Shown: positions 860 to 46,928, counted from the stretch's first letter. The stretch is 64,000 nucleotides of DNA from a bacterium ADurb.Bin236 (GCA_002069885.1 MWCD01000001.1:67795-131794); one strand, 5' to 3'. Program-made: numbers and translations. Notes: a model not told the origin generated them from the letters alone.

Positions 860-1675
860 ATGGATTGGGGCATGAAGAACAGGATATCGAAGATTATCAG
901 GCCGGAAACCGGCAGAGCGGTTATGCTGGCTGTGGATCACGGATATTTTCTCGGGCCTACGCGCGACTTGGAAGTTTTGAAAAAGACGATTTCTCCCTTG
1001 ATCACATACGCTGATTCTCTGATGCTGACGCGCGGCGCGCTGCGCTCGTCAGTTGACAGCCAAACAACTACGCCAATTGTCCTGCGCGTGTCGGGCGGCT
1101 CAAGCGTCATAGGCGAAAGCCTAGCGAATGAGGGCTTGATTACTTCGATGGAAGACGCAATACGGCTGAACGCCGTGGCCGTGGCCATTTCCATCTTTGT
1201 CGGCACGCAGTATGAAAAACAGAATCTGCTGAACATGGCGGAACTGGTGAATCAGGGCGAGAGGGTGGGCGTGCCGGTGCTGGCAGTAACCGCCGTAGGC
1301 AAGGAACTCGGAAAGAGAGATCAGCGGTTCCTGTCGCTCTCATGCAGGATAGCCGCCGAACTAGGCGCGCGGATAGTGAAAACTTACTACTGCGACGGTT
1401 TCGAGAAGGTTGCCTCGACATGTCCGGTTCCGTGCGTTATAGCTGGAGGGCCGAAGCTGGAAACGGAGTTGGACGCGTTCGAGATGACTTATAACGCCAT
1501 CAAGAAGGGCGCTGTCGGCGTGGACATGGGCAGAAACATCTGGCAGAACCCGAAACCTGTGGCGATGATAAAGGCGATTCGAGCCATCGTTCACGAGAAT
1601 ATGAAACCGCAGGAAGCGCTCAAGCTGTACGAGTGCGAAAAGAACTTGAAGAAGTCTGCGGCGAAAAAGAAATAA
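860..1675 (+). CDS. Class I aldolase of the DhnA/FbaB archaeal type (DeoC/LacD superfamily)
   Basis: The N-terminus MKNRISKIIRPETGRAVMLAVDHG matches the Schiff-base aldolase family. An AAGGAGG RBS lies 7 nt upstream of the ATG at 860. Length is about 270 aa. Confidence 0.75.
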   Translation: MDWGMKNRISKIIRPETGRAVMLAVDHGYFLGPTRDLEVLKKTISPLITYADSLMLTRGALRSSVDSQTTTPIVLRVSGGSSVIGESLANEGLITSMEDAIRLNAVAVAISIFVGTQYEKQNLLNMAELVNQGERVGVPVLAVTAVGKELGKRDQRFLSLSCRIAAELGARIVKTYYCDGFEKVASTCPVPCVIAGGPKLETELDAFEMTYNAIKKGAVGVDMGRNIWQNPKPVAMIKAIRAIVHENMKPQEALKLYECEKNLKKSAAKKK

Positions 1676-1742
1676 AGTTTTGCTCTAAATCTCGCGCGGG
1701 CGCAACTCTCGTTGGCGAAAACTTGAATCGTGAGGCGGCAAA

Positions 1743-2771
1743 TTGCGCGTCGCTATGTACTACAACAACAATGACGTCAGGGTCGAGGAAGCCTGCGTTC
1801 CTGAAATCGGCGCAGGCGACCTTCTCGTCCGCATAGAGGCGAGCGGGGTTTGCGGCAGCGACGCGATGGAGTGGTACAGAATCAAGAAAGCGCCCATTGT
1901 GCTCGGACACGAAATCGCGGGCGAGGTGGTGGCGGTCGGAGAAAATGTGGTTGGGTTTGCTGTCGGCGACCGCGTCTGCGCCATCCATCACGTGCCATGC
2001 GGAATCTGCCACTATTGCTTGAAAGGGCATCATTCGGCGTGCGACTTGTTGCGCTCAACCAGATTCGATCCCGGCGGTTTTGCTGAATATGTCAGAGTTC
2101 CCGAAGTCAATATAAAGAACGGCGGAGTGGTGAAACTTCCTGAAGGAATGACTTACGAGGAGGGAACTTTCATCGAGCCTGTGTCCTGCGTCGTAAGGGG
2201 GCAGAAGCAAGCTGGTCTCGATCCCGGAGACAGCGTTTTTGTCATCGGCAGCGGTATATCAGGGCTGCTGCACATAAAGCTCGCCTGCGCGCTCGGAGCG
2301 GGCAGGGTGTTTGCCGCAGACATTAACCCGTTCAGAATAAACGCCGCGCTCGGATGCGGGGCGGACGCCGCTATCGATGCGCGGGAGGATTTGCCCGCGT
2401 GGCTGCGTTCCGCCAATGAAGGCCGGCTCGCCGATATCGTTATCGTGTGCGCGGGTTCGTCAGACGCCATGCGCGCAGCTCTTCTCTGCGTGGGGCGCGG
2501 CGGAACCGTTCTCTTTTTCGCTCCCTCCTCTCCGGGAGAAACTATCCCGGTGTCGGTGAACGACCTTTGGCCCAACGAAATCACTCTCACAACAAGTTAT
2601 GCGGGAAACGCCTGCGACATCGCTCAAGCGACGGAGTTGATCCGCGCGCGCAGGATTTCCGTCGAAGACCTGATAACTCATCGCTTGCCATTGAGCGACA
2701 CGGGAAAAGGGTTCAGATTGGTGGCGGGCGCGGAGGAGTCGATAAAGGTGATTATAGAGCCGCAGAAATGA
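1743..2771 (+). CDS. Zn-dependent alcohol dehydrogenase (MDR family, threonine/sorbitol dehydrogenase-like)
   Basis: The protein carries GVCGSD and GHEIAGEV zinc-binding motifs and a Rossmann GxGxxG (VIGSGISG). The start is probably TTG at 1743, with a GAGGCGG SD 5-6 nt upstream. An alternative ATG lies at 1755. Confidence 0.8.
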   Translation: MRVAMYYNNNDVRVEEACVPEIGAGDLLVRIEASGVCGSDAMEWYRIKKAPIVLGHEIAGEVVAVGENVVGFAVGDRVCAIHHVPCGICHYCLKGHHSACDLLRSTRFDPGGFAEYVRVPEVNIKNGGVVKLPEGMTYEEGTFIEPVSCVVRGQKQAGLDPGDSVFVIGSGISGLLHIKLACALGAGRVFAADINPFRINAALGCGADAAIDAREDLPAWLRSANEGRLADIVIVCAGSSDAMRAALLCVGRGGTVLFFAPSSPGETIPVSVNDLWPNEITLTTSYAGNACDIAQATELIRARRISVEDLITHRLPLSDTGKGFRLVAGAEESIKVIIEPQK

Positions 2772-2843
2772 CTGCCGCGATATGAATGAAGCGCTTAAAT
2801 CTCGCGCCGATTAAATCGAAAACTTAAGAAAGAAGGCATAGAG

Positions 2844-3467
2844 ATGAACGACGAAGTGAAAGAAATTCCGGTAGGCGAAAAGATAAAGAAACTTAGAGAG
2901 GAAAAGGGCGTTTCGCTGCAGGAATTCGCGGAAAAATCCGGCTTCTCGTCCGCGCTCCTCTCACAGATCGAAAATCACATGGTGTCGCCGCCGCTAGGCA
3001 CTCTCATTAAACTGTCGAAAGCGCTCGGCGTGGAAATCGGCTATTTCTTCGAGGATGTTCGGGATGCCCCTTATACGCTTGTAAGGCACAACGAGAGGAA
3101 GAACATCTCCCGCGTCGCCTCTAAGATGGGCAAGAAATATGGATATTCTTACGAGTCCCTAGCTTTCGACAAAAAGGGCAGGCACATGGAGCCTTTCCTC
3201 GTCACGCTGGAACCCTCGACGGTCAAAGACCAGCACCTGTACTCGCACGAAGGCGAGGAATTCATTTTCGTCCTAGAAGGAAAGATGAGCGTCCAACTTG
3301 CGGATCATACCGACATTCTCGAACCCGGCGACAGCATATATTTCGACTCGATTATGCCGCACCGCGTCGAATGCGTTGACGATAAGGAAACGATTATCGT
3401 CGCCGTGATCTACGCCGGGAAAGAAGTTGAGAAAGGCGTTCTCGGCGAGGAAAAAAGCGACGACTGA
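2844..3467 (+). CDS. XRE-family HTH transcriptional regulator with a C-terminal cupin domain
   Basis: An N-terminal HTH_3 motif (LREEKGVSLQEFAEKSGFSSALLSQIEN) is followed by a cupin-like C-terminal half (GEEFIFVLEG). Confidence 0.8.
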   Translation: MNDEVKEIPVGEKIKKLREEKGVSLQEFAEKSGFSSALLSQIENHMVSPPLGTLIKLSKALGVEIGYFFEDVRDAPYTLVRHNERKNISRVASKMGKKYGYSYESLAFDKKGRHMEPFLVTLEPSTVKDQHLYSHEGEEFIFVLEGKMSVQLADHTDILEPGDSIYFDSIMPHRVECVDDKETIIVAVIYAGKEVEKGVLGEEKSDD

Positions 3468-3573
3468 CAACTGCTTGGTTTCGCCGCGAATTGTTTAACT
3501 GACAGCTTTGGTTATTTCGACCCGGCGTGAAAGTTGCACATAGATGTCTCAATCATAATATGCGGAGATAAAA

Positions 3574-4755
3574 ATGGCGGGAGCTTTGAAGGGCGTTAGG
3601 GTTTTGGACTTGTCGAGGTTGTTGCCCGGACCGTACTGCACGATGATGATGGCGGACATGGGCGCGGAGGTCGTCAAGGTGGAAGACCCTCAGCAGGGCG
3701 ACTACCTGAGATGGATTCCTCCTTATATCGACGGCGCGGGCGCTATGTTTCTTGCTCTGAACCGGAACAAGAAAAGCGTGACGTTGGACTTGAAGGATAA
3801 TCGCGGACGAGAGATATTTTTCGAACTTGTTAAGAAATTCGACGTTGTGGTGGAAAGCTTCAGGCCCGGCGTGATGTCCAAGCTCGGCGTGGACTACGCT
3901 ACAGCGGAGAAAATCAATCCGAGGATTATTTATTGTTCGCTTGCCGGGTATGGACAGAATGGGCCTTACGCTTCATTCGCCGGGCATGACATCAATTTCA
4001 TCGGGTATTCCGGAGCCTTGGATTTGACAGGTCTGAAGAAAGGAAAGCCAGTTCCTCCGGGCGTTCAAATAGGCGACATCGGGGGCGCTTTGAACGCGCT
4101 GATAGGCATTCAGGCGGCTCTAATCGAACGCGCCGCTAGCGGGCGCGGGCAGAGCGTGGACGTCGCTCTAGCCGACGCCGCTTTCTGCATGTTGCCGATG
4201 GCAGTGTCCGGGATCGAGGCCGGAGCGCCTCCAGAACGCAGGGGCGAAGCTCATCTTACAGGCGGCATCCCGGTCTATAACACTTACGAAACTTCCGACG
4301 GAAAATATATCTGTATCGGAGCCATCGAGCCGAAATTCTTCAATAAATTCTGCGCCTTAATCGGTCGCCCGGATTTGATCCCTCTTCATTTTGCGGAAGG
4401 CGAAAAAAAGGACTTTCTCAGAATGGAGTTGGAAAATATTTTTATCAGCAAAACGCGCGCCGAGTGGCTCTCCTTGCTCGAATCTCAGGATGTATGCGTC
4501 GGGCCTGTGAACAATTTGGAAGAGGCGCTCGAAGACCCTCAGCTAGTTTCCAGAGGCCTTATCGTGCAAGTCCCTCTTGCTTCTGGGAAAACTATGAGAC
4601 AGGTCGGCATTCCTTTTAAGTTGTCTCGTTCTTCGACAGAAAAGCCGTCTCCGCCGCCCGCCATCGGAGCGGACAACGAGGAGATATTCGCAGAGGCCGG
4701 AGTTACTCTTGAAGAAATACGAACACTCAAGGAAAAGGGCATAATACGGAAGTGA
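3574..4755 (+). CDS. CoA-transferase family III (CaiB/BaiF/alpha-methylacyl-CoA racemase-like)
   Basis: The N-terminus LKGVRVLDLSRLLPGPYCTMMMADMGAEVVKVE is the family III CoA-transferase signature. Length is 393 aa. Confidence 0.8.
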   Translation: MAGALKGVRVLDLSRLLPGPYCTMMMADMGAEVVKVEDPQQGDYLRWIPPYIDGAGAMFLALNRNKKSVTLDLKDNRGREIFFELVKKFDVVVESFRPGVMSKLGVDYATAEKINPRIIYCSLAGYGQNGPYASFAGHDINFIGYSGALDLTGLKKGKPVPPGVQIGDIGGALNALIGIQAALIERAASGRGQSVDVALADAAFCMLPMAVSGIEAGAPPERRGEAHLTGGIPVYNTYETSDGKYICIGAIEPKFFNKFCALIGRPDLIPLHFAEGEKKDFLRMELENIFISKTRAEWLSLLESQDVCVGPVNNLEEALEDPQLVSRGLIVQVPLASGKTMRQVGIPFKLSRSSTEKPSPPPAIGADNEEIFAEAGVTLEEIRTLKEKGIIRK

Positions 4756-4763
4756 GAATTGCG

Positions 4764-5819
4764 ATGAATAAAAAATTTTTAATCATAACGGCTGTTATTG
4801 CGGCTTTTTCGGCGGCGTTTTTTTTCCACGCGACTACCGCGTTTTCTAAAAAGAAACAGACTACGGTCAAAATAGGCTCTTTCGTGACGCCGCAAAGCGT
4901 ATGGGGAAAAACTGTCGCAAAAACAATCAAGAATATAGAAAAACGAACGGACGGAGAGATTAAGATAACACACCTTCATTCGGGAACGCTCGGCAGCGGA
5001 AAAAATATGCTGGATCAGGTTATTATAGGAGGGATTCAGGGCGCGGGAGTGGACACCGCAACGCTTGCCTCGATAGTCCCGGGAGTGAACATCATCGAGT
5101 TGCCGTTCCTGTTCGAAAACCACGACGAAGCGTACTACCTTTTAGACAATGTGATATCGCCAGTCTTGAAAAAGAAATTCGATGAAAAGGGGCTAGTCAC
5201 ATCGGCTATCATGGAAACTGGATTCATGGATTTTGTGATGAGCGGCCCTGTGAGGAAACCGGAAGATTTGAAATCAATGAAAATCGGCTCATGGGAAAGT
5301 CCGGTTCACATCGCTTTCTGGAAGTCGCAGGGGGCCTCGCCGATTCCGATCCCGGCAACGGAGGTTTTCAACGCCTACGCGAGAGGGATGGTGGACAGCG
5401 GAGCGAACTCCGCCAACGCGCTCATAGCGTGGGACAAATTGTTCGGAACCGGGTTGAAGAGGGACAAGATATTCATAACGCGCTCCGCGTTCACATATCA
5501 GGCGGGAATTCTCGTTATTAACAAAAAATTCTACAATTCTCTGGACTCTGATTCGCGCGACATATTGATGTCGGAACTTGATTCGATGACAGGCGTTCTT
5601 CGCTCCCAGTTGCGGCGTTCGGAACCGGAGGCTCTTAAAAAACTAGCCTCCATAGGATACAACGTCGGAGAGATATCCGACAAGGAAAAAGCAGTGTTCG
5701 AAAAGAATTCAAAGAAAGTATATTCAGAGATGAGAAATGTTATCGGCGGAAGTTTCCTCGACAGCGTATTGTCGGCTAGGGAAGCGTACCGTTCCGGAAA
5801 GAAAAGGCCGGTCAAATGA
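4764..5819 (+). CDS. TRAP-type transporter periplasmic solute-binding protein (DctP family), orphan
   Basis: There is a signal peptide, and the ELPFLF motif is typical of the DctP family. No DctQ/DctM permease genes are adjacent. The start is an ATG at 4764, with a GTG alternative at 4752. Confidence 0.65.
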   Translation: MNKKFLIITAVIAAFSAAFFFHATTAFSKKKQTTVKIGSFVTPQSVWGKTVAKTIKNIEKRTDGEIKITHLHSGTLGSGKNMLDQVIIGGIQGAGVDTATLASIVPGVNIIELPFLFENHDEAYYLLDNVISPVLKKKFDEKGLVTSAIMETGFMDFVMSGPVRKPEDLKSMKIGSWESPVHIAFWKSQGASPIPIPATEVFNAYARGMVDSGANSANALIAWDKLFGTGLKRDKIFITRSAFTYQAGILVINKKFYNSLDSDSRDILMSELDSMTGVLRSQLRRSEPEALKKLASIGYNVGEISDKEKAVFEKNSKKVYSEMRNVIGGSFLDSVLSAREAYRSGKKRPVK

Positions 5820-6937
5820 CACACGGCGGGAAGATGAGCGCGGCGGACAACAACATTTTGCTGGAGCTGCTCGGAGCGGCGATTAAATCCAAACACGTCG
5901 CCATAATCGTTCACAACAATCCCGACCCAGATTCAATCGCGTCCGCGTTCGGATTGTCATTGTTGATTAAACGCAAGTTCAAGGCCGAAGCAAAGATTTT
6001 CTACGGCGGTATTATAGGCAGAGCGGAAAACCGCGCGATGGTTCGCGAGTTGTGCATCCCCATGAACAGTTTTGACAAGCTTGATATGCGGATTTTTCGG
6101 ACGATCGCGATGGTGGACACTCAACCTTCGGCAGGCAACAACCAGCTCCCGTCGAAAATCATCCCCGACATTGTGATTGACCACCACCTGCCTGTTAGAA
6201 AACAAACTCACAAAGCGGCGTTCAAGGATGTGCGAGACACTACGGGAGCCACTTCGACGATTGTTCTTGGGTATCTTCGCGCGGCGGACATAAAAATAAA
6301 CACAAATCTGGCGACGGCTCTATTCTACGGAATCAAGACCGACACTTACGACCTCGGAAGGGATTTTATAAAAGACGACACGGAAGCGTACAAGTTTCTT
6401 CTCGAAAAGATAAGCCGCGCAAAACTGGGCAGAATCGAAAGGCCTCTGCATGACCGCGAATACTTCGCTAAGTTGCACGAGGCTCTGGAGAACGCGGTCG
6501 TCGCCGACGATGTCGTGACAACGGTGATAAGAAACCTCGAATCGCCTGACATCGCCGCCGAAGTGGCCGATTGGCTTTACACTCTGAAATCGGCAAAATG
6601 GGCGGTTGCTATCGGAGCGATGCGGGATAGAATTCATATCTCAATCAGAACACGCGAGAAAAAAAGAAACGCGGCGTCGGTGATAAGAAAAATCGTAGGC
6701 GCGAGGGGCGTCGCAGGCGGACACGGACAGATTGCCGGCGGCATCGTGTTTCCGTCCAAACACGACAATGATTCAATCGAGACGGAAATTGCGAAAACGA
6801 TAGACAGGATACGAGCCGCAATTATCAGGAAAGAGGCTTTTGCGGCGCATCCGTTGATTGAGAAGCGCGCCAAGTCCGGCGCCGGCTCTCTGAGCGGAAA
6901 TGAAACAACGGCGAAAAAGAAAGGCGACCCGGCATGA
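5816..6937 (+). CDS. DHH-family phosphoesterase (NrnA-like, DHH/DHHA1)
   Basis: The protein has NPDPDS and DHHLP motifs. Its start overlaps the upstream stop (ATGA). Confidence 0.7.
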   Translation: MTHGGKMSAADNNILLELLGAAIKSKHVAIIVHNNPDPDSIASAFGLSLLIKRKFKAEAKIFYGGIIGRAENRAMVRELCIPMNSFDKLDMRIFRTIAMVDTQPSAGNNQLPSKIIPDIVIDHHLPVRKQTHKAAFKDVRDTTGATSTIVLGYLRAADIKINTNLATALFYGIKTDTYDLGRDFIKDDTEAYKFLLEKISRAKLGRIERPLHDREYFAKLHEALENAVVADDVVTTVIRNLESPDIAAEVADWLYTLKSAKWAVAIGAMRDRIHISIRTREKKRNAASVIRKIVGARGVAGGHGQIAGGIVFPSKHDNDSIETEIAKTIDRIRAAIIRKEAFAAHPLIEKRAKSGAGSLSGNETTAKKKGDPA

Positions 6938-7941
6938 AATCATTGGTTTACAGAGGCAAGCTCGGATTGGTTTGCGAAGAGACTCCGAAACCAGCGCCCG
7001 CTCCGGGACAAGTATTATTGCGGATAAGCAATTGCGGAATTTGCGGCAGCGACTTGTTTCTTTTTAAGAACGGCATTCTCAGAGACGGAACGGTAATGGG
7101 ACACGAATTAAGCGGAGTGGTCGAGGAGCTAGGAGAGGGCGCGTCCGGTTGCAAACCCGGCGATAAAGTAATCGCCCGGCCTCAAGGGTGCGGCGAATGC
7201 AAGTGGTGTCTCGAACGCAAAGAGAATATTTGCACCAAGAGGCGGTCAATCGGGCTTGGAGGCAGACCCGGCGGATTCGCGGAATTCATGGTCGCCGATT
7301 CGGATATGATTATTCACACGCCGGAAGGGCTGCCTCTTGAACAGGCATGCATGGCGGATCAGTTCGGTTCAGCGTTGCACGGGATGAATGCGGTCGGTTT
7401 CAGGAAAGGCGAGAAGGTTCTTGTAACAGGAGCGGGGCCGATAGGTCTGAGCGCCATAATCCTTCTTAAACATAAAGGCGCTTCCAAAGTCGTCGTGTTC
7501 GACCCTGACGAAAGCCGCGCTTCCACGGCGCTGGAGTTCGGCGCGGACGCCGCTGTATCAGCCGGCTCTATTCAATCAGTCGCCAGAGATCATTTCGGCG
7601 GTGACGGCCCGGATTGCATTCTGGAATGCTCCGGGAATTCAAAAGCCGTCGAGGCTTCTATCCAGACGGCTCCATTCGGCGGCAGAATAGGGCTTGTCGG
7701 CATGGCCTCCGCTCCGGCGACGTTCATACCGATGCTGGTCTTCCAGAAGCATCTCACGATTATCGGCTGCTTCGGCAACACTCAGGACGAATGCAGGGAA
7801 TGCATGGATATCATGGCAGCAGGCGCTCCGGCGGGCAAACTTATAACTAAAATGGTTTCAATCGAACAACTCCCAGCGGCTTTCGACGAACTGCTCAAAT
7901 CTAAAGAGCAGACGAAAATCGTTATGGACGCTTCTTTATGA
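6934..7941 (+). CDS. Zn-dependent alcohol dehydrogenase (MDR family), second copy
   Basis: The protein carries GICGSD and GHELSGVV motifs and a Rossmann VTGAGPIG. It overlaps the upstream gene by 4 nt. Confidence 0.8.
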   Translation: MKSLVYRGKLGLVCEETPKPAPAPGQVLLRISNCGICGSDLFLFKNGILRDGTVMGHELSGVVEELGEGASGCKPGDKVIARPQGCGECKWCLERKENICTKRRSIGLGGRPGGFAEFMVADSDMIIHTPEGLPLEQACMADQFGSALHGMNAVGFRKGEKVLVTGAGPIGLSAIILLKHKGASKVVVFDPDESRASTALEFGADAAVSAGSIQSVARDHFGGDGPDCILECSGNSKAVEASIQTAPFGGRIGLVGMASAPATFIPMLVFQKHLTIIGCFGNTQDECRECMDIMAAGAPAGKLITKMVSIEQLPAAFDELLKSKEQTKIVMDASL

Positions 7942-7968
7942 TGTTTTTGATTATTTCGGCGGGAATAA

Positions 7969-10041
7969 CTAACGAAGAATATCTTTGATACGGTTTTTGA
8001 CGGCGTCCTTCAGTTTCTCGCCATCTCCGGCATCCTTGTTTTCAGAGGAAGAACCGGCAAGCTTCTGTTTTGCCTTATCCAATAGTTTATCCGCTTCTTT
8101 GTTAATAAGTCTTTCAGCCTCGCCTCTAAGCAGTCGTTCGACATCCCAATAAACTTTCGGATCGTTTACGTTTCCGGTCACGTCGAAAGATGTTTCGATA
8201 TCTTTAAGTTCAGAAAGTTTTCCGAGTTTTGAAGCGACCGGTTTGAAATCTTTAATAGTTTTCAGCACGGCGGGCGGCAGAGAGGCTGTGGCCCTGAGAT
8301 TGAGGTCGCCGTTGAAACCTATCGCTCCGGCGACATCAGCGTTTATCATCGGCGACCTCAAGGCGGCGCGATTGATGCCGACGGTTTCGTTGCCGACATG
8401 AAACTGTCCGTCGAAAGAATGAAAACTGAATTTGGAAAGATTAAGGTCAGCCGGCATCGAGATGGAATCGACGTCGTATGGATTCGCAACGATACCGGCA
8501 AAGATGGAAATAGCGGCGTCCGCATTCAATTTGCGGAGAGAGTCGGAGCGTCCGTTAACGCGGGCCGACGCTGCGAACTCGCCGGACAGAGTCCCCGCAA
8601 AACTTGGGTTGTGTTTGAGAACTTCTCCGATGTTTTTCGAATTGGCAACGATGGAGAAATCATAGCGCGCGGGAGATGCGGGCGTGTTTGTTAGAGCGTC
8701 AATCGTGTACTTTATCCAGCCTGCCGCCGAAGCGGTTAACGCCGCTCCGTCCAGTTTGACGGAATCTATGATAATGTCAGGCTGTTTGTGCCTTGCGGAA
8801 ACTGTCAATGTCTTAAAAGGGATATCCGCCCATGTCCCTTGTCCGCCGCGCAGGGCGGGGGAGGGGTATCTGATTGAGCCTTCTTTCACTGTTGCGGATG
8901 CGTGGGCGGATAAAGCGCTCCATTCGTTTGCTGAGCCTTCGAGCGCGATTGTTCCGTCCGCCACTCCGAGAAGAACCTTCGGAGCGTCAGGCGCTAGCGC
9001 CGCCGCAAGCGCGTCCGGGTATATTCCGGCAAATGAAATCTCGGACGAAAACGCGCGCGATGCGTCCGCTCCGAGTGTGCCGGTCGCGTCTAAAGACGCT
9101 TCTGACGATTCCACAGACGCATTGAACGACGCGCCGCCTCGATTCATTTTTATTGCCGCGACGCCCGCTCCTAAATCGTGTTCCAACGCGCGAAGCTTCT
9201 TCATGTCGGCTTTGAATTCGAGATCGGGAGACACTAAATCTCCATTAATGGCGGCAGACAGTTTTGCGTCGCCGCTGATTTTGAGTTTTTTGATTATCTC
9301 TGCGTCTATAAACGCCGCCAAAGCCGCCGGAGGCTTAGACAATTCAATCGTGTCGGTCTCAATGTTGAAACGCACAGCAGCGCCGCCGGCGCTCTGTTTT
9401 ACTTTCCCCTTCGCGTTTGTTTGAACGCCTTCAATGTCGGCGTTCATCCTGACGGAGGTTTCCGCAAGAGTCGAATCCTTGCCTTTCGAAATCAATAACG
9501 CATTAATGTTCGTCGCGCTGATGGCGACCGCGTCAGCGGAATCTCTATTTATTGTCGCCATGACATCGCCGTCTTGGATAGTAATCTTATTTATTAAAAC
9601 CGAAGGGCCTTTAGGTTTCGGCGCGGTATCGGAAAACGATTCGATTATGTCGTCAATGTCGCTATGACCTGCCTCGTCGATATTTATTGAGACGCTCGGA
9701 CGGACCAGATTGACTCTCGACACGGTTATTCTGCCTCTAAGCAAATCTCTGAAACTTATCCTGAATCTCATCGCGTCAATCTTTACAGCGTCCTGCTTGC
9801 CCGGTTCCGCCGACGCCACAGTAATATGCCTGACTGAGAACCCGGTAAAAGGGTTGCCGCCGAGATTTCCGGCGGAGACGTCCCGGCCAATCCTTTCCGA
9901 GGCGGCCTTCAGCATGTGGTTTTTAAGCTTCTCAGCAGGCGACTGAGCCAGAATTGTGGCGACCACGAAAAGAACGGCGAGAGAAAATGATGAAACAATG
10001 ATTGCCGTGCGATTCTTTTTTATTGCGGTCTTTATGTTCAT
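7969..10041 (-). CDS. AsmA-family outer-membrane assembly protein
   Basis: An N-terminal TM anchor is followed by a long beta-rich AsmA-like region (RISFRDLLRGRITVSRVNLVRPSVSINIDE). Length is 690 aa. Confidence 0.7.
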   Translation of the reverse strand: MNIKTAIKKNRTAIIVSSFSLAVLFVVATILAQSPAEKLKNHMLKAASERIGRDVSAGNLGGNPFTGFSVRHITVASAEPGKQDAVKIDAMRFRISFRDLLRGRITVSRVNLVRPSVSINIDEAGHSDIDDIIESFSDTAPKPKGPSVLINKITIQDGDVMATINRDSADAVAISATNINALLISKGKDSTLAETSVRMNADIEGVQTNAKGKVKQSAGGAAVRFNIETDTIELSKPPAALAAFIDAEIIKKLKISGDAKLSAAINGDLVSPDLEFKADMKKLRALEHDLGAGVAAIKMNRGGASFNASVESSEASLDATGTLGADASRAFSSEISFAGIYPDALAAALAPDAPKVLLGVADGTIALEGSANEWSALSAHASATVKEGSIRYPSPALRGGQGTWADIPFKTLTVSARHKQPDIIIDSVKLDGAALTASAAGWIKYTIDALTNTPASPARYDFSIVANSKNIGEVLKHNPSFAGTLSGEFAASARVNGRSDSLRKLNADAAISIFAGIVANPYDVDSISMPADLNLSKFSFHSFDGQFHVGNETVGINRAALRSPMINADVAGAIGFNGDLNLRATASLPPAVLKTIKDFKPVASKLGKLSELKDIETSFDVTGNVNDPKVYWDVERLLRGEAERLINKEADKLLDKAKQKLAGSSSENKDAGDGEKLKDAVKNRIKDILR

Positions 10042-24660: not shown

Positions 24661-25260
24661 CTAGCCGGGGCCGCCGTCTGAAGCCATTGTCCTAGCAATT
24701 TCGAGGTCTTCCGGATTGTTCACGTTGAAGACGAATCTGCGCCACGAATCTTCATCGAGGCCGAGGTCGGCGGCGGATATCCAGCGAATTCTCAGTTCTT
24801 CAATGCAGGCCATTATTTTGAAGACGCCGCGGCTTATTCCGCGCTCAATCGCGTCGCGCGCCGCGATAGAGTATGAAGACAAGAGTGGCTGAGGTCCTTC
24901 TTTAGAAAAAACAATTCCGGCGTCCGAGTCTTTCGAAAGGTCGAAAACGCGGGCGAGTGTGGCTCCATCTATAAAAGGTGTGTCGCAGGGGGCGACTTGG
25001 TATTGTTCTCTAGGAAAAGCGTTCATAACGGAGAGCAAACCGCCAGCAGGCCCTTGTCCGGGGGTATCGTCCGCAATGGCGGCAAGCCCTAGCCGGGAGT
25101 AGCGTTCCGGCTCGTTGGTCGAGAGAATGATTTCCGGGAAGTAAGGAGAAAGCTTTTCTATTATGTCGTCAATAATCGGGCGGCCGTTGAGTTCCAAGCG
25201 GGTTTTATCCGCGCCCATGCGGGAGCTTTTCCCGCCCATGAGAAGTATTAGGGTTCTCAT
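24661..25260 (-). CDS. mobA: Molybdenum cofactor guanylyltransferase
   Basis: The MobA N-terminal motif LILLMGGKSSRMGADK is present. The ATG overlaps the stop of the upstream mcsAB-like gene. Confidence 0.75.
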   Translation of the reverse strand: MRTLILLMGGKSSRMGADKTRLELNGRPIIDDIIEKLSPYFPEIILSTNEPERYSRLGLAAIADDTPGQGPAGGLLSVMNAFPREQYQVAPCDTPFIDGATLARVFDLSKDSDAGIVFSKEGPQPLLSSYSIAARDAIERGISRGVFKIMACIEELRIRWISAADLGLDEDSWRRFVFNVNNPEDLEIARTMASDGGPG

Positions 25261-26933
25261 CTGCGGGAGCGCGACCTCCCCGCGCCCCTTCCGTTTGCGA
25301 TTTCGGAGTCTTTCGAATACAGCCATGCGTCCACGATTTCCGCAAATAGGTCCGCGCGGCGGGCCTCGCATTCGTTGATGCTGCTCGTTTTTCCGTCCGC
25401 TAGCATTATTCCGGCGGACGACATGGCGGGCAAAACATCGGAAACGGCGAACGCGGGCATCTCGACCAATCCTCTATCCAGAGCGAGGGAAAAGAGCGAA
25501 ACAAACCTGAGGGCGTCATGATATGAAAGCCTGTGCGCGCGTTTGGCGTTGTGTATGACGCGCGGAATGGCGCGATACATCCTGTTTTCGTCGTCGGGCG
25601 AGAAGGCGTCTCGCAACTCCCCTTCTCTCTGAATAAGTCGCGCGGCGAAATCACCTGTCGAAACGGCTATCTCTTCGGCGGTCTGGCCGAATCCGACGAG
25701 AGCCGACACAAGATAGAAGCCGTGATGTTCGAGGTTGGAGCCTCTGAAGGGTTCGACTTTCACGGAATAGCGCTCCGCTCTGTCCGGCCAAAAGAATGTG
25801 TCGCCGCTCAGAAAACTGTAAGGCAGATGCAACAGGATGGACGCCGAAGCTCCCGACCCGATATATTTCGGCGAGGCCGCAAGATAACCGAACCTCGGAG
25901 AGAACGCCGGTTCGGCGTTCTTTTCCATTCCCTCGACAGCCTTAAGAGCCTTTGCCATCAGAGCTGCGGCGTCCGCGCCGGCAGCGCCGGACTGGAACGC
26001 GCTCACCGAAAGATGATCAATGTCGTTTATCAGCGCCGACATTGAGCCGTCGCGATTTATGAGGGCAGAAGAACGAGGTTCAGGCCGCCTCATGAAAAAA
26101 CGTTCGCCGAGGGCGAGCCTCTCAATCGCGGACAGAAGCTTCATATCTATTCTTGAAGAAGCTGAAATAAAGCCCTTGGGCAGAAGCGAAACGGCTAGAA
26201 GCTCGACAAGCTCGCGCCTTGAGGGCGAAAGCCTGCCGGGAAAATTGAAACCGGAGAAATTGCGTCTGAGTTCGACGCGGCTCCATACTATTCCCGTATC
26301 GTTGGAAGACGGCGAGCAACCGCCGCCGGAGTTAATTGCCGATTTTGCGGAAGCGTCGAGCTTCAGCGCAGCCGGGAACCCCTGCGCGGCCCTTTTCGAC
26401 GCATCTATCCGGGATTTCGCGCGGCATTCTACTTTCTTTTCCAGCTTCAGAAGGGCTTCCTTATGTTTCCCAGCGGACGCATAGTCTTCCGTCCTGATTT
26501 CTTCTTCTATTCTGTTTTTCAGTTTCAGGAGTTTCGAACGCTCAGAGTAAGCCGCCGGGGACGGCCCTCTGTAAAACGACACGCCATCGGCGAGCGAGCA
26601 ACCAAGCAAAGAAAGATAACCGGTAAGCATCGAGCCGAAAACGGAAGCGCATTCCGGGCAACCGAGCCTGAAACCGCGTTCGAATTCCCGGAGTTTGGTT
26701 CCGCAAGCTCTGCAACTGTCCGCAAACTCAACCGGCAAATCGTAGCAGGAGAGAGTCTGGGAGAGGTCGTCCGCGCCGCCAAGACCTCTTATCTGGGACT
26801 CGACGCGCCTGAGAGCGGCCAGCATCCCCACGGATTCCGCGCATTCCGCGCAGAAACCCACTCGCGGGCTTTCCTGTCTTCCCCAAGACAGGAAGTAATC
26901 AGCTTTGTTTTCACCGCATTTCGAGCACTTCAT
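25257..26933 (-). CDS. mcsB: Fused McsA-McsB: an N-terminal McsA-like Zn-finger/UVR module joined to a protein arginine kinase (ATP:guanido phosphotransferase) domain
   Basis: The N-terminus has CxxC pairs (CSKCGEN..CAECA..CRACG..CPEC) and a UVR-like helix (LKNRIEEEIRTEDYASAGKHKEALLKLE). The C-terminal blocks VWSRVELRRNFSGFNFP, INDIDHLSVSAF and GYLAASPKYIGSGASASILLHLP align with Bacillus subtilis McsB as I recall it. Confidence 0.7.
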   Translation of the reverse strand: MKCSKCGENKADYFLSWGRQESPRVGFCAECAESVGMLAALRRVESQIRGLGGADDLSQTLSCYDLPVEFADSCRACGTKLREFERGFRLGCPECASVFGSMLTGYLSLLGCSLADGVSFYRGPSPAAYSERSKLLKLKNRIEEEIRTEDYASAGKHKEALLKLEKKVECRAKSRIDASKRAAQGFPAALKLDASAKSAINSGGGCSPSSNDTGIVWSRVELRRNFSGFNFPGRLSPSRRELVELLAVSLLPKGFISASSRIDMKLLSAIERLALGERFFMRRPEPRSSALINRDGSMSALINDIDHLSVSAFQSGAAGADAAALMAKALKAVEGMEKNAEPAFSPRFGYLAASPKYIGSGASASILLHLPYSFLSGDTFFWPDRAERYSVKVEPFRGSNLEHHGFYLVSALVGFGQTAEEIAVSTGDFAARLIQREGELRDAFSPDDENRMYRAIPRVIHNAKRAHRLSYHDALRFVSLFSLALDRGLVEMPAFAVSDVLPAMSSAGIMLADGKTSSINECEARRADLFAEIVDAWLYSKDSEIANGRGAGRSRSRR

Positions 26934-28343: not shown

Positions 28344-28370
28344 TCAAGATTTTTCCGGGAACGCCGATAT
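28344..28370 (+). promoter_or_regulatory. Sigma-28 (FliA)-like promoter: TCAAGATT-N11-GCCGATAT
   Basis: It matches the E. coli sigma-28 consensus TAAAGTTT-N11-GCCGATAA at 6/8 and 7/8 positions, with the correct 11-nt spacer. It lies about 95 nt upstream of the 60-aa ORF. Confidence 0.5.
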
Positions 28371-28464
28371 ATATATTGGACACGGAGGTCGTTTGAAGCA
28401 AAATTCACTGTCTGACCACGGAGGGGAAGAAGTGATAAATTTTTTAGAAGGGGAGGTATGAGAA

Positions 28465-28647
28465 ATGTCGTCAGTATCGATGGGAAGTTTTGATTATGCC
28501 TCCAGAATAGTGACCAATTCGCTGAGAGCTCAGAACATTGCGTTGCTGAATCTGTTCGAAGTAGTCAAACAGGCAGCCACAGCTCAGACAACTCCTTTAG
28601 CGAATTTGGCCAATACGCCGCAGAACGTCGTGGATATTTACGCTTAA
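28465..28647 (+). CDS. Small 60-aa protein, possibly a YjfB-like motility-associated peptide
   Basis: A GGGAGG RBS lies 8 nt upstream. A strong intrinsic terminator follows the gene. No Cys residues are present. The C-terminal NVVDIYA resembles my recollection of YjfB-family ends. Confidence 0.45.
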   Translation: MSSVSMGSFDYASRIVTNSLRAQNIALLNLFEVVKQAATAQTTPLANLANTPQNVVDIYA

Positions 28648-28744
28648 ATTTTTTTTCGAGGAGCTATTAAGTAATCTGAAAAAGCGACGATAAATAAAAT
28701 AGATGACATGGTTGCTGCTAGCCACAGCAACTCCTCCTAAAAAG

Positions 28745-28774
28745 AGCCACCCGAAACCGGTGGCTTTTTTTTAT
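28745..28774 (+). terminator. Rho-independent terminator
   Basis: A 7-bp stem (AGCCACC/GGTGGCT) is followed by TTTTTTTTATT. A second 6-bp hairpin lies at 28712..28730. Confidence 0.7.
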
Positions 28775-41426: not shown

Positions 41427-41744
41427 TCAGAGTTCTTCTTCCGAACGGACGAAACGTATGACTTGGTTCATGCGAGTTCGAAGCATTGATTCGAGGGCTA
41501 CATTTCTGGCGTTCAAAACCACGAATTCGCCGCCTTCGGCAATGGCTTTCTCGTGGAACCTCAGAAGCGTTCCGATCACGCTTGAGTTGATAACAGGGGA
41601 TTCCATGAGATCCACGCATATCGCATGATCGCCGGAATCGAACAGCACGGCCAATTGTTCGGACAAACGGGAGGAGTCCTCTATCATCGACAAGTCTCCG
41701 CCCGGACACACCACACAGAATTTTCCTTTTCTGCGAATCCTCAC
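41427..41744 (-). CDS. STAS-domain anti-sigma-factor antagonist
   Basis: The STAS fold is recognisable, with a phosphorylatable Ser region VINSSVIGTLL. Confidence 0.65.
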   Translation of the reverse strand: MRIRRKGKFCVVCPGGDLSMIEDSSRLSEQLAVLFDSGDHAICVDLMESPVINSSVIGTLLRFHEKAIAEGGEFVVLNARNVALESMLRTRMNQVIRFVRSEEEL

Positions 41745-41852
41745 ATCCGGCTCCCCCGCCGTCGCGACCTACGCAATAAATTCTAACACAATCAGCGTCC
41801 GCGTGAACCGCTAATTTTAATAATGTCGATTTCGAAAAACAGAATGATTACT

Positions 41853-42212
41853 TCAGGGGATATTTTCGACATTGTCATAAATCTTGAAAATGCTTCTAAA
41901 ATTCAGCATGTCGAATAGTTGGAGAATAGCGGGAGCGGCCCCGGCAATAAACATCTCCCCGCCTCGCGACCTCACGTATTTCAATGCCGCCACAAGCGAA
42001 CCGAGGCTTACGCTGTCGATAATCTGAATGTTGGACATATCTATCACTGCGTCGCCGGAGTGATCTATCAATGAATCCTTCACGGCGTTGAGAAAGCCTC
42101 TGTTGTTGTTGTGGGTTATCTCGTTGACTAGGGGTGTGATGACGATAGCGCCGCCGCTGAGGCGCGTCTCAACATCCATGTTGTCTTGTTTCTCGATCAT
42201 GCGGCTCCTCAA
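41853..42212 (-). CDS. STAS-domain anti-sigma-factor antagonist
   Basis: The motif IIDSVSLGSLVAAL (the conserved phosphorylatable Ser of the SpoIIAA/RsbV family) is present. Confidence 0.7.
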   Translation of the reverse strand: MRSRMIEKQDNMDVETRLSGGAIVITPLVNEITHNNNRGFLNAVKDSLIDHSGDAVIDMSNIQIIDSVSLGSLVAALKYVRSRGGEMFIAGAAPAILQLFDMLNFRSIFKIYDNVENIP

Positions 42213-42412
42213 GCATACGAGTCGAATCTGGAAAAACGTTGAATGCTATCCGTGCGCGCAGTCCACGGCCCCTGCTCGATGAGCGGCCGCCTATTTTCAT
42301 CAATCGATTTGAATGCCTCGGCCATGACCCTGAGCCATGTCGCGCTCTTATAAAGTCCGCCGGCCATCCATGTTATCTGCGCCGCGCTTCCTCCGCCTTC
42401 AATCGCTGACAT
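42209..42412 (-). CDS. Small hypothetical protein (67 aa)
   Basis: It overlaps the upstream STAS gene by 14 nt and the downstream STAS gene by 4 nt, a pattern typical of translational coupling. I found no recognisable motif. Confidence 0.3.
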   Translation of the reverse strand: MSAIEGGGSAAQITWMAGGLYKSATWLRVMAEAFKSIDENRRPLIEQGPWTARTDSIQRFSRFDSYA

Positions 42413-42767
42413 CGGCTTCCTCCCTTTCTCTGAACCATGCTACAGCGCTTTCCACGCTATTGAAAACTTTTATCACTTTATTCAGATGCAACGCGCCGAA
42501 CAACTCGTTGATTTTCGGGTCTTTAATCACCACTACCATGTCGCCGCCCAAACGGCGCGCGAACAATAGCAGCGGCGCGAGCATTCCTAGCGCCAAACTG
42601 TCCATGAACTTCACTCGTGAAAGGTCTAAACAAATATTGCAGTTATAATCGCTGAATGAGCTTCTAACCTTGGCGAAAGTTTCCTCATAATTCGTAAACT
42701 GTATGACCTCCACCAGAACGGTGACGACCCTCGTTTGTTCTATGTCTTTAACAAGAGTGTATATCAT
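42399..42767 (-). CDS. STAS-domain anti-sigma-factor antagonist
   Basis: The motif KFMDSLALGML is present. Length is 122 aa. Confidence 0.7.
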   Translation of the reverse strand: MIYTLVKDIEQTRVVTVLVEVIQFTNYEETFAKVRSSFSDYNCNICLDLSRVKFMDSLALGMLAPLLLFARRLGGDMVVVIKDPKINELFGALHLNKVIKVFNSVESAVAWFREREEADVSD

Positions 42768-46746: not shown

Positions 46747-46901
46747 TTCGCTACCTCCATGTATTTTACTGCCGCTGCGGGAAAAATCCTTTTTTCCCGT
46801 TTGCCCCGGAACCGCCGTCTAACTTAACCCGCCCCGGTATGCCCTGAAAGCGCCTTGAGATATACTTCGCCAACATGTCCGGCGCTTTCGCTACTGTTAA
46901 T

Positions 46902-46928
46902 AAATCGGCCTTGCGGCGAAAAACTTTA
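46902..46928 (-). promoter_or_regulatory. Sigma-28 (FliA) promoter: TAAAGTTT-N11-GCCGATTT
   Basis: The -35 element is a perfect consensus, the -10 matches 6/8, and the spacer is 11 nt. It lies about 155 nt upstream of the flagellin-family start. Confidence 0.6.

Follow-up and report, generated by a model that had tools for sequence, protein, structure and literature searches.

A predicted small RNA and an unannotated small-protein gene in nested sigma-28-type transcription units of an uncultured bacterial clade

Short transcription units with a flagellar type of promoter raise the question of what they make: a known motility peptide, a protein of a new family or something other than a protein. 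We addressed this question for one such locus of ~430 bp. The window analyzed here is the whole 64,000-nt stretch of DNA from bacterium ADurb.Bin236 (GCA_002069885.1, MWCD01000001.1:67795-131794), and the locus occupies positions 28344 to 28774. The initial annotation described a compact sigma-28-type unit encoding a 60-residue peptide that resembles YjfB, and suggested a late-flagellar role, possibly as a chaperone or an FlgM-like factor. All the parts of that unit are where it placed them, namely the promoter, the ribosome-binding site, the open reading frame (ORF), a hairpin and the terminator (Table 1). The identity of the protein and the nature of the 3' end turned out differently.

Table 1. 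Positions of the features discussed in the text, counted from the first nucleotide of the window.
Feature	Position	Strand	Description and basis
P1, sigma-28-type promoter of the small-protein mRNA	28344..28370	+	TCAAG 28344-28348, 14-nt spacer, GCCGATAT 28363-28370; sequence and conservation
Leader hairpin 1	28379..28390	+	GAC-ACGGAG-GUC; CACGGAGG fits the CANGGANG hexaloop; invariant in 13 aligned leaders
Leader hairpin 2	28404..28436	+	UUCACU...CC-ACGGAG-GG...AGUGA; second CACGGAGG in apical hexaloop
Shine-Dalgarno sequence	28450..28456	+	GGGGAGG, 8 nt before ATG; sequence
Small-protein gene	28465..28647	+	60 aa, no Cys; ORF, homologues, dN/dS, AlphaFold2 model
P2, internal sigma-28-type promoter of the small RNA	28667..28693	+	TTAAG-N14-GACGATAA; inside the 3' UTR
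Predicted small RNA, ~66-72 nt	28701..28772	+	Own promoter P2; 5' end inferred from sequence
Layout of the small RNA	28701..28772	+	(U)GACAU, stem-loop 28710-28732, exposed CUCCUCC 28731-28737, terminator 28745-28772
Hairpin of the small RNA	28710-28732	+	8 bp, GGUUGCUG-CUAGCCA-CAGCAACU; sequence
Terminator	28745-28765	+	AGCCACC-CGAAACC-GGUGGCU; 7-bp GC-rich stem, T8 to 28772
Giant flagellin gene, 983 aa	35218-38169	-	Pfam-confirmed flagellin
Two CANGGANG hexaloop hairpins, giant-flagellin leader	38315..38389	-	CUUUCAC-AAGGAU-GUGAAAG and UCCC-ACGGAG-GGGG
Sigma-28-type promoter of the 983-aa flagellin gene	38484..38509	-	Pattern match
Flagellin gene, 336 aa	45736-46746	-	Pfam-confirmed
Sigma-28-type promoter of the 336-aa flagellin gene	46903-46928	-	
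CANGGANG hexaloop hairpin over the 336-aa flagellin Shine-Dalgarno sequence	46752..46763	-	UAC-AUGGAG-GUA

The 60-residue protein

Single-sequence searches with the small protein retrieved one cluster at 90% identity and three proteins of 59-60 aa at ~40% identity. With profile searches the number of homologues, which are 58-61 aa long, rose to ~30, and none of them carries a Pfam annotation (a 411-aa protein from the representative search, P0002, is a repetitive false positive). All of the homologues come from metagenome-assembled genomes (MAGs) or metagenomes of uncultured organisms labelled "bacterium", one of them named UBP15_UBA6099. From the genome and metagenome loci we obtained 14 distinct coding sequences, and dN/dS of the small ORF ranges from 0.08 to 0.28 (Nei-Gojobori). 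For instance, the window and the relative in locus L001 differ at 7, 4 and 18 sites at codon positions 1, 2 and 3, respectively. A Shine-Dalgarno sequence equivalent to that of the window (AGGAGG, GGAGGT or GGGGGT) precedes the ORF in 12 of the 14 distinct leaders, those of L018 and L007 being without one. The ORF is divergently oriented from a PHP-family gene and a DUF1232 gene, and this synteny holds across lineages that share 57-70% identity of the PHP protein. Because dN/dS is low, homologues exist, and promoter, leader and synteny are conserved, we consider the ORF to be a real gene. By these comparative measures it is genuine and under purifying selection, and the proposal of a real small protein, which required a conserved reading frame, is borne out.

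The AlphaFold2 model, computed from the family alignment, consists of one long helix over residues 6-49 (pLDDT of 89-95 over residues 11-40), followed by a flexible tail ending in VDIYA. The family motifs are VSM near the N-terminus, QG..LL.L, AQ.KPLANL and a C-terminal [IVF]-D-x-Y-A. Read from its sequence, the protein has no membrane-spanning hydrophobic stretch. The six-frame translation of the window contains no paralogue detectable by hmmsearch. A 67-aa ORF at 42209-42412(-), located between two of three tandem genes for STAS-domain (anti-sigma-antagonist-like) proteins at 41427-42767(-), ends in FDSYA, similar to the C-terminus of the small protein. It matches neither the family HMM nor Pfam, and the likeness is probably a coincidence. 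The neighbors that are conserved next to the small-protein gene are the PHP, DUF1232 and McsB-like genes, and the gene does not adjoin flagellar genes. The McsB-like gene of the window, at 25257-26933(-), belongs to the conserved DUF1232/PHP cluster upstream of the small ORF and encodes a 558-aa ATP:guanido phosphotransferase with an N-terminal, Cys-rich, zinc-finger-like segment.

The protein does resemble YjfB (PF14070, 'putative motility protein') in some respects: both have ~60 aa, a sigma-28/sigma-D-type promoter, a helical center and a short C-terminal xDxxA motif. This raises the alternative that it is a very divergent motility peptide of the YjfB type, with the RNA features of the locus being secondary. 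A global hhalign alignment even puts the central helix, a Pro-containing linker and the C-terminal [IV]-D-x-x-A of the two families in register (pairwise P of 0.02). However, in hmmscan at E<=10 neither the window protein nor any of 13 further distinct members matched PF14070, FlgM or FliS, the families that the initial annotation had singled out for testing. As positive controls we used five genuine "YjfB family protein" genes from Enterobacterales plasmids (two plasmid tblastn searches with other YjfB-like queries found nothing). All five control proteins match PF14070 at E<=2.5e-14, the first with 53.5 bits against a Pfam gathering threshold of 27 bits. Comparison by hhalign of the 32-sequence family with these five YjfB proteins, which make a shallow profile, gave a probability of 0.4% (E = 0.14). 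A broader but still shallow YjfB set, to which we added three consensus-like sequences of our own making (72-89 bits on PF14070), gave a probability of 1-2% (P = 0.02). No PF14070-annotated protein turned up in a profile search of 5.8 billion proteins, NCBIfam has no match for the small protein, and a PDB profile search produced chance matches only (E of at least 0.15). YjfB has also been reported in a fliA/FapA flagellar sub-module (PMC11607428), and the small-protein gene does not lie beside such a sub-module. The motifs VSM, QG..LL.L, KPLANL and D.YA and the genomic neighbors likewise differ from those of YjfB. We therefore reject membership in the YjfB, FlgM and FliS families on the Pfam, NCBIfam, hhalign and PDB results: the protein is like YjfB only in its size, its helix and its C-terminal xDxxA shape, the results lend no support to membership, and distant descent from YjfB seems to us rather improbable. 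The homologues would instead form an unannotated new family of small proteins of the flagellar regulon.

Sigma-28-type promoters and hexaloop leaders

Promoters were assigned to the sigma-28 (FliA/SigD/WhiG) class by the pattern of TAAA, a ~15-nt spacer and GCCGATAA, which P1, P2 and the promoters of both flagellin genes display. P1 is the sole exact match to the sigma-28 pattern in the 64-kb window. With up to two mismatches the pattern search found 10 matches against 5.6 expected, and the match at P1 by itself is not beyond chance. We accept P1 as real because it is conserved among homologous leaders, not because of the match alone. Its CGATA -10 element is kept in all 14 distinct leaders of homologous ORFs, and a TAAAG-like -35 element stands at the same distance in 13 of them. 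Several of these ORF leaders use as their -10 the GACGATA that serves P2 in the window. P1 and P2 are best described as sigma-28-type promoters with predicted FliA dependence. A tblastn search of the fetched loci found a FliA-like sigma factor gene 4 kb from the locus in L012, the only case within 5 kb.

The presumed transcripts also begin alike. The 5' start of the mRNA, UUGGACACGG (28372-28385, +), is nearly identical to the start of the small RNA, GAUGACAUGG (28700-28714, +), which reads UUGACAUGG in most copies, and GUGACAC likewise follows the giant-flagellin promoter. These common words may be a start context preferred by the sigma factor of the clade.

The initial annotation was right in placing the small-protein gene in one promoter class with the two flagellin genes, and motifs in the leaders are common to them too. 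It overlooked that the 5' leader holds two CsrA-type hexaloop motifs. The element CANGGANG is a high-affinity apical hexaloop bound by CsrA/RsmE (PMC4894983), and CACGGAGG is an exact instance of it. In the 13 aligned leaders both hairpins have a C-G pair that closes a hexaloop with the sequence ACGGAG. The RNAalifold consensus contains pairs 2-13, 3-12 and 4-11 for hairpin 1 and five pairs with compensatory changes for hairpin 2, whose motif lies at 28417-28424. All three occurrences of CACGGAGG in the 64-kb window fall within sigma-28-type leaders, as do four of the six CANGGANG hexaloop hairpins. The leader of the small-ORF mRNA thus has the at least two GGA motifs in apical CANGGANG hexaloops that typify CsrA/RsmE-bound leaders, and it looks regulatory, with putative CsrA-type sites. 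Searches by tblastn for csrA, fliW and hfq were negative in the window and in 55 fetched loci, which represent a small part of each genome.

The flagellin orthologous to the 336-aa protein in L042 keeps the hairpin over the Shine-Dalgarno sequence as UAC-AGGGAG-GUA, with the variable loop base changed. The giant flagellin (gene and promoter at 35218-38509, -) carries an insert of ~740 aa, with PD40 and TSP3 matches, between its N- and C-terminal flagellin domains. Its leader is unusually long (~340 nt), and the gene is located directly upstream of secA.

The small RNA in the 3' untranslated region

The untranslated regions are conserved better than the coding sequence in the alignment of the window with its 90%-identical relative. 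Between the window and L001, coding dS is 0.70 and the 3' region has 2 differences in ~125 nt. Downstream of the ORF, a 33-nt block (CATGGTTGCTGCTAGCCACAGCAACTCCTCCTA) is 100% identical even in distant homologues whose proteins are ~40% identical. The 69-nt RNA of the 3' end folds at -27 kcal/mol, compared with a mean of -13.8 for shuffled sequences (z = -4.6), into two hairpins flanking a single-stranded CUCCUCCUAAAAA tract.

We searched for this element in 185,579 species genomes and found 22 sites in 12 MAGs, all labelled only "bacterium", one of them UBP15_UBA6099. A metagenome scan in which the stem bases were left free added 24 sites, and together the two scans yielded 37 distinct copies. 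The source environments are activated-sludge and digester samples, for example ENA UOWO01, JGI 3300032800 and SRR12926096. The core is the same in all 37 contexts, including those found with no constraint on the stem bases. Among 25 aligned distinct copies, 47 columns are invariant and cover GACAUGG-UUGCUG, the loop AGCCA, CAGCAACUCCUCCU, AGAGCCACC and GGUGGC; variation is confined to the first two bases of the loop, the A-rich linker and the loop of the terminator. Nucleotide identity in the adjacent ORF is 56% on average and 37% at third codon positions. No stem position varies among the 37 copies, and there is no covariation to be counted for the RNA structure. The covariance model scores 94 bits at the window copy. 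A second copy was absent from the window both in a pattern search with three mismatches and with the covariance model run with filters off. Rfam has no match over the whole window in gathering mode, and in local E-value mode the best hit is RNAI with 23.9 bits against a gathering score of 47. The RNA family is absent from Rfam and, as judged from these searches, previously undescribed.

Nearly every copy is preceded by a promoter. In 33 of the 37 distinct copies, 13 or 9 nt separate CATGG from the end of a P2 counterpart with the form CTAAAG-N14/15-NCCGATA(A/T), and weaker versions in two further copies bring the total to 35. The copies in L007 and L018 are without P2, and their block begins 13-26 nt past the stop codon of the ORF. 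MAGs contain two to three sites where contigs and coverage allow. One copy per MAG always follows the small ORF, a linkage conserved in 14 distinct lineages, and the other one or two are free-standing. The sRNA is not a leader or attenuator, because the genes downstream of it point either way and at random (13 co-oriented, 15 convergent). With its own promoter, an intrinsic terminator and a conservation that is independent of the flanks and of downstream orientation, the element has the features of a free-standing sRNA gene. We conclude that the segment at ~28701-28772 is an independent small-RNA gene under strong selection, with predicted ends and a predicted dependence on sigma-28. The 'secondary hairpin' and terminator of the initial annotation are both present; they form the body of a separate sRNA and are not mere 3' parts of the mRNA.

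Some copies have neighborhoods of note. The free-standing copy in L042 (6001-6035, minus strand) lies between a flagellin gene and a TPR-MotA cluster, in a motility neighborhood at 1328-8515 with the order flagellin, glycosyltransferase-like gene, sRNA, TPR protein and MotA. The flagellin gene there has a sigma-28-type promoter and CANGGANG over its Shine-Dalgarno sequence. The copies in L011, L019, L022, L032 and L049 make up one orthologous free-standing group, marked by a UACAGAGCC linker and a distance of 9 nt to the -10 element. Each of these five copies is situated ~150-290 nt upstream of a co-oriented gene for a multi-pass membrane protein of ~305-330 aa, DMT/EamA-like as judged from its sequence.

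The sRNA contains an in-frame mini-ORF at 28708-28740(+), AUG GUU GCU GCU AGC CAC AGC AAC UCC UCC UAA (MVAASHSNSS). It is unlikely to be coding, as its stop codon is not conserved and its wobble positions are invariant. The codons for AATAQTTPL in the small-protein ORF (GCAGCCACAGCUCAGACAACUCCUUUA, 28592-28617, +) resemble the sRNA in sense orientation (AGCCACAGC...AACUCCU). This likeness occurs only in the lineage of the window, is absent in L001 and is probably due to chance.

Proposed regulation and related systems

The exposed CUCCUCC of the sRNA is complementary to the GGAGG core of the CANGGANG sites in the leaders and to Shine-Dalgarno sequences. In the leaders that we inspected, the second site offers 6-7 bp to CUCCUCC, and when full-length mRNAs were folded the 3' CUCCUCC paired with leader sites in seven of eight lineages. 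The translation start region of the giant flagellin can form 9 contiguous pairs with the sRNA, and CUCCUCC placed over the GGGGAGG of the small ORF has a predicted energy of -14.2 kcal/mol. Predicted energies for the start regions of the flagellins and the ORF, -10 to -14 kcal/mol, are unexceptional among the 76 start regions of the window, and duplex energies computed over the window and these 76 regions brought out no outstanding trans-target. Nor did a search for 9-mer complementarity in 375 kb of fetched DNA reveal an extended conserved target. The match of CUCCUCC to GGAGG is short, and any strong Shine-Dalgarno sequence would satisfy it.

Taking these results together, we favor as the probable interpretation two nested late-flagellar units that end at one common terminator, one for the small-protein mRNA and one for an sRNA that tunes late flagellar mRNAs. 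From P1, an mRNA of ~395 nt with a predicted start at ~28378 would be made for a mostly helical protein of 58-61 aa, its leader displaying two CANGGANG hexaloops and a strong Shine-Dalgarno sequence. From P2, within the 3' UTR, an sRNA of ~70 nt would be transcribed, its predicted primary 5' end lying at ~28701-28704. P2 is missing in two lineages and therefore the sRNA there would need to be processed from the mRNA. Active sigma-28 would switch on both transcripts, and the small protein, as a flagellar product of the late class, would come under joint regulation with flagellin. The CUCCUCC of the sRNA would pair with GGAGG-containing Shine-Dalgarno sequences and CANGGANG loops of late flagellar mRNAs, its candidate targets being its own upstream mRNA and the flagellin mRNAs. 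Such pairing may tune translation of the targets, and a CsrA-type protein that recognizes these CANGGANG loops would probably take part. A bolder version of this idea, which we regard as a long shot, is that the sRNA acts as a new kind of flagellar checkpoint regulator. Similar to the anti-Shine-Dalgarno sequence of 16S rRNA, CUCCUCC would here pair directly with the GGAGG at the core of Shine-Dalgarno sequences and of CsrA-type CANGGANG loops, and so compete with CsrA, the ribosome or both. The small-protein mRNA, with three GGAGG sites and the sRNA at its own 3' end, would then be a built-in sponge or partner.

Another explanation of the RNA element starts from its extreme conservation. Ordinary base-pairing sRNAs usually let their stems covary, and here the 37 copies agree in both stems and in the loop, with stem bases free in the search pattern. 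The invariant stems suggest a sequence-specific protein or RNA partner, and simple seed pairing does not explain them. The sRNA might thus act mainly by sequence-specific binding of a protein or a structured RNA, for which a flagellar regulator, an RNA chaperone or the adjacent 60-aa protein would be candidates, and the linkage of one copy to the small ORF in 14 distinct lineages points in the same direction. However, the exposure of a C/U-rich tract between two hairpins is typical of a pairing seed, free-standing copies occur without the ORF, and no candidate partner emerged. We judge such a binding role unlikely as the main mode of action.

The block could also be read as a DNA-level element rather than an RNA gene: an operator, a recombination site acting on GTTGCTG-N7-CAGCAAC or a mobile repeat. 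It does contain a perfect 7-bp inverted repeat, is present in multiple copies in each genome and is conserved without covariation. This seems very improbable to us, given that nearly every copy has a sigma-28-type promoter upstream at a fixed distance and a U-tailed terminator directly downstream, and that invariance extends equally to the non-palindromic CUCCUCC and the AGAGCCACC stem. Moreover, spacer, linker and loop sequences differ between copies, genomes have only two to three copies, and orthologous flanks differ between lineages. The proximity of ORF and sRNA, with CUCCUCC able to cover the GGGGAGG of the ORF, also brings to mind a type I toxin-antitoxin-like module in which the sRNA represses translation of a toxic small protein. 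The protein lacks a hydrophobic membrane-spanning segment, however, and is modelled as a long helix of a soluble type; the RNA is co-oriented with the ORF and not antisense to it, and also exists in free-standing form; and both genes have flagellar promoters and a stable synteny. We give a toxin-antitoxin function hardly any credence.

The preferred reading, a flagellar sRNA nested behind a small-protein gene, has relatives among known systems. UhpU, MotR, FliX and FlgO of E. coli are sigma-28-dependent, UTR-derived sRNAs (Melamed et al. 2023, PMC10578931), UhpU deriving from the 3' UTR of a metabolic gene. Like the sRNA described here, they belong to the flagellar sigma factor class and some reside in another gene's 3' UTR; they exert feedback on the synthesis of flagella (PMC10578931). 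Unlike them, the window sRNA has no related sequence among them and no Rfam match, belongs to an uncultured candidate clade, is multi-copy and invariant, and carries a CUCCUCC that resembles the anti-Shine-Dalgarno sequence, with no hfq gene in the fetched DNA. In Campylobacter, CjNC1 and CjNC4 are sigma-28-dependent sRNA paralogues that repressed reporters in E. coli without Hfq (PMC4626219), and CJnc170/FlmR is a FliA-dependent sRNA (PMC11187230). The paralogues share with our sRNA the sigma-28 class, several copies per genome and predicted pairing to flagellar 5' UTRs. They differ in sequence and clade, and here one copy is always nested behind the small-protein gene. The predicted partners differ as well, being leaders of the sigma-28 class itself here and of the sigma-54 class for the Campylobacter sRNAs.

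The leaders recall the CsrA-FliW-flagellin control of Campylobacter, where flaA mRNA is a dual-function titrator of CsrA (Dugar et al. 2016, PMC4894983). In that system two GGA motifs reside in apical CANGGANG hexaloops, one of them able to cover the Shine-Dalgarno sequence, and the same hexaloop architecture is found here in the leaders of the small ORF and both flagellins. The GGA sites are 36 nt apart here versus ~18-21 nt in the flaA system, csrA and fliW were not found in the small part of each genome that was fetched, and the known CsrA-FliW-flagellin system does not involve an sRNA with complementarity to the GGAGG core.

As far as comparison of sequences goes, the locus is a new RNA family and a new small-protein family, of a known general kind, from an uncultured candidate clade. 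The small RNA is the more interesting of the two elements. To our knowledge, descriptions of sRNAs under the control of the flagellar sigma factor are limited to a few model bacteria, E. coli and Campylobacter among them. The locus adds to these an RNA family that is new to Rfam and comes from an uncultured lineage, with clean comparative evidence for its promoter, transcript body and terminator. The degree of conservation, with 47 invariant positions that include the stems, points to a further partner of the sRNA. The flagellin leaders suggest that CsrA-type hexaloops on flagellin mRNAs extend to this uncultured clade, and the compact locus brings together an sRNA, a dual-function mRNA and CsrA-like sites. 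If the checkpoint idea were true, it would add to flagellin homeostasis a layer of RNA-RNA interaction that is fixed throughout an entire candidate phylum.
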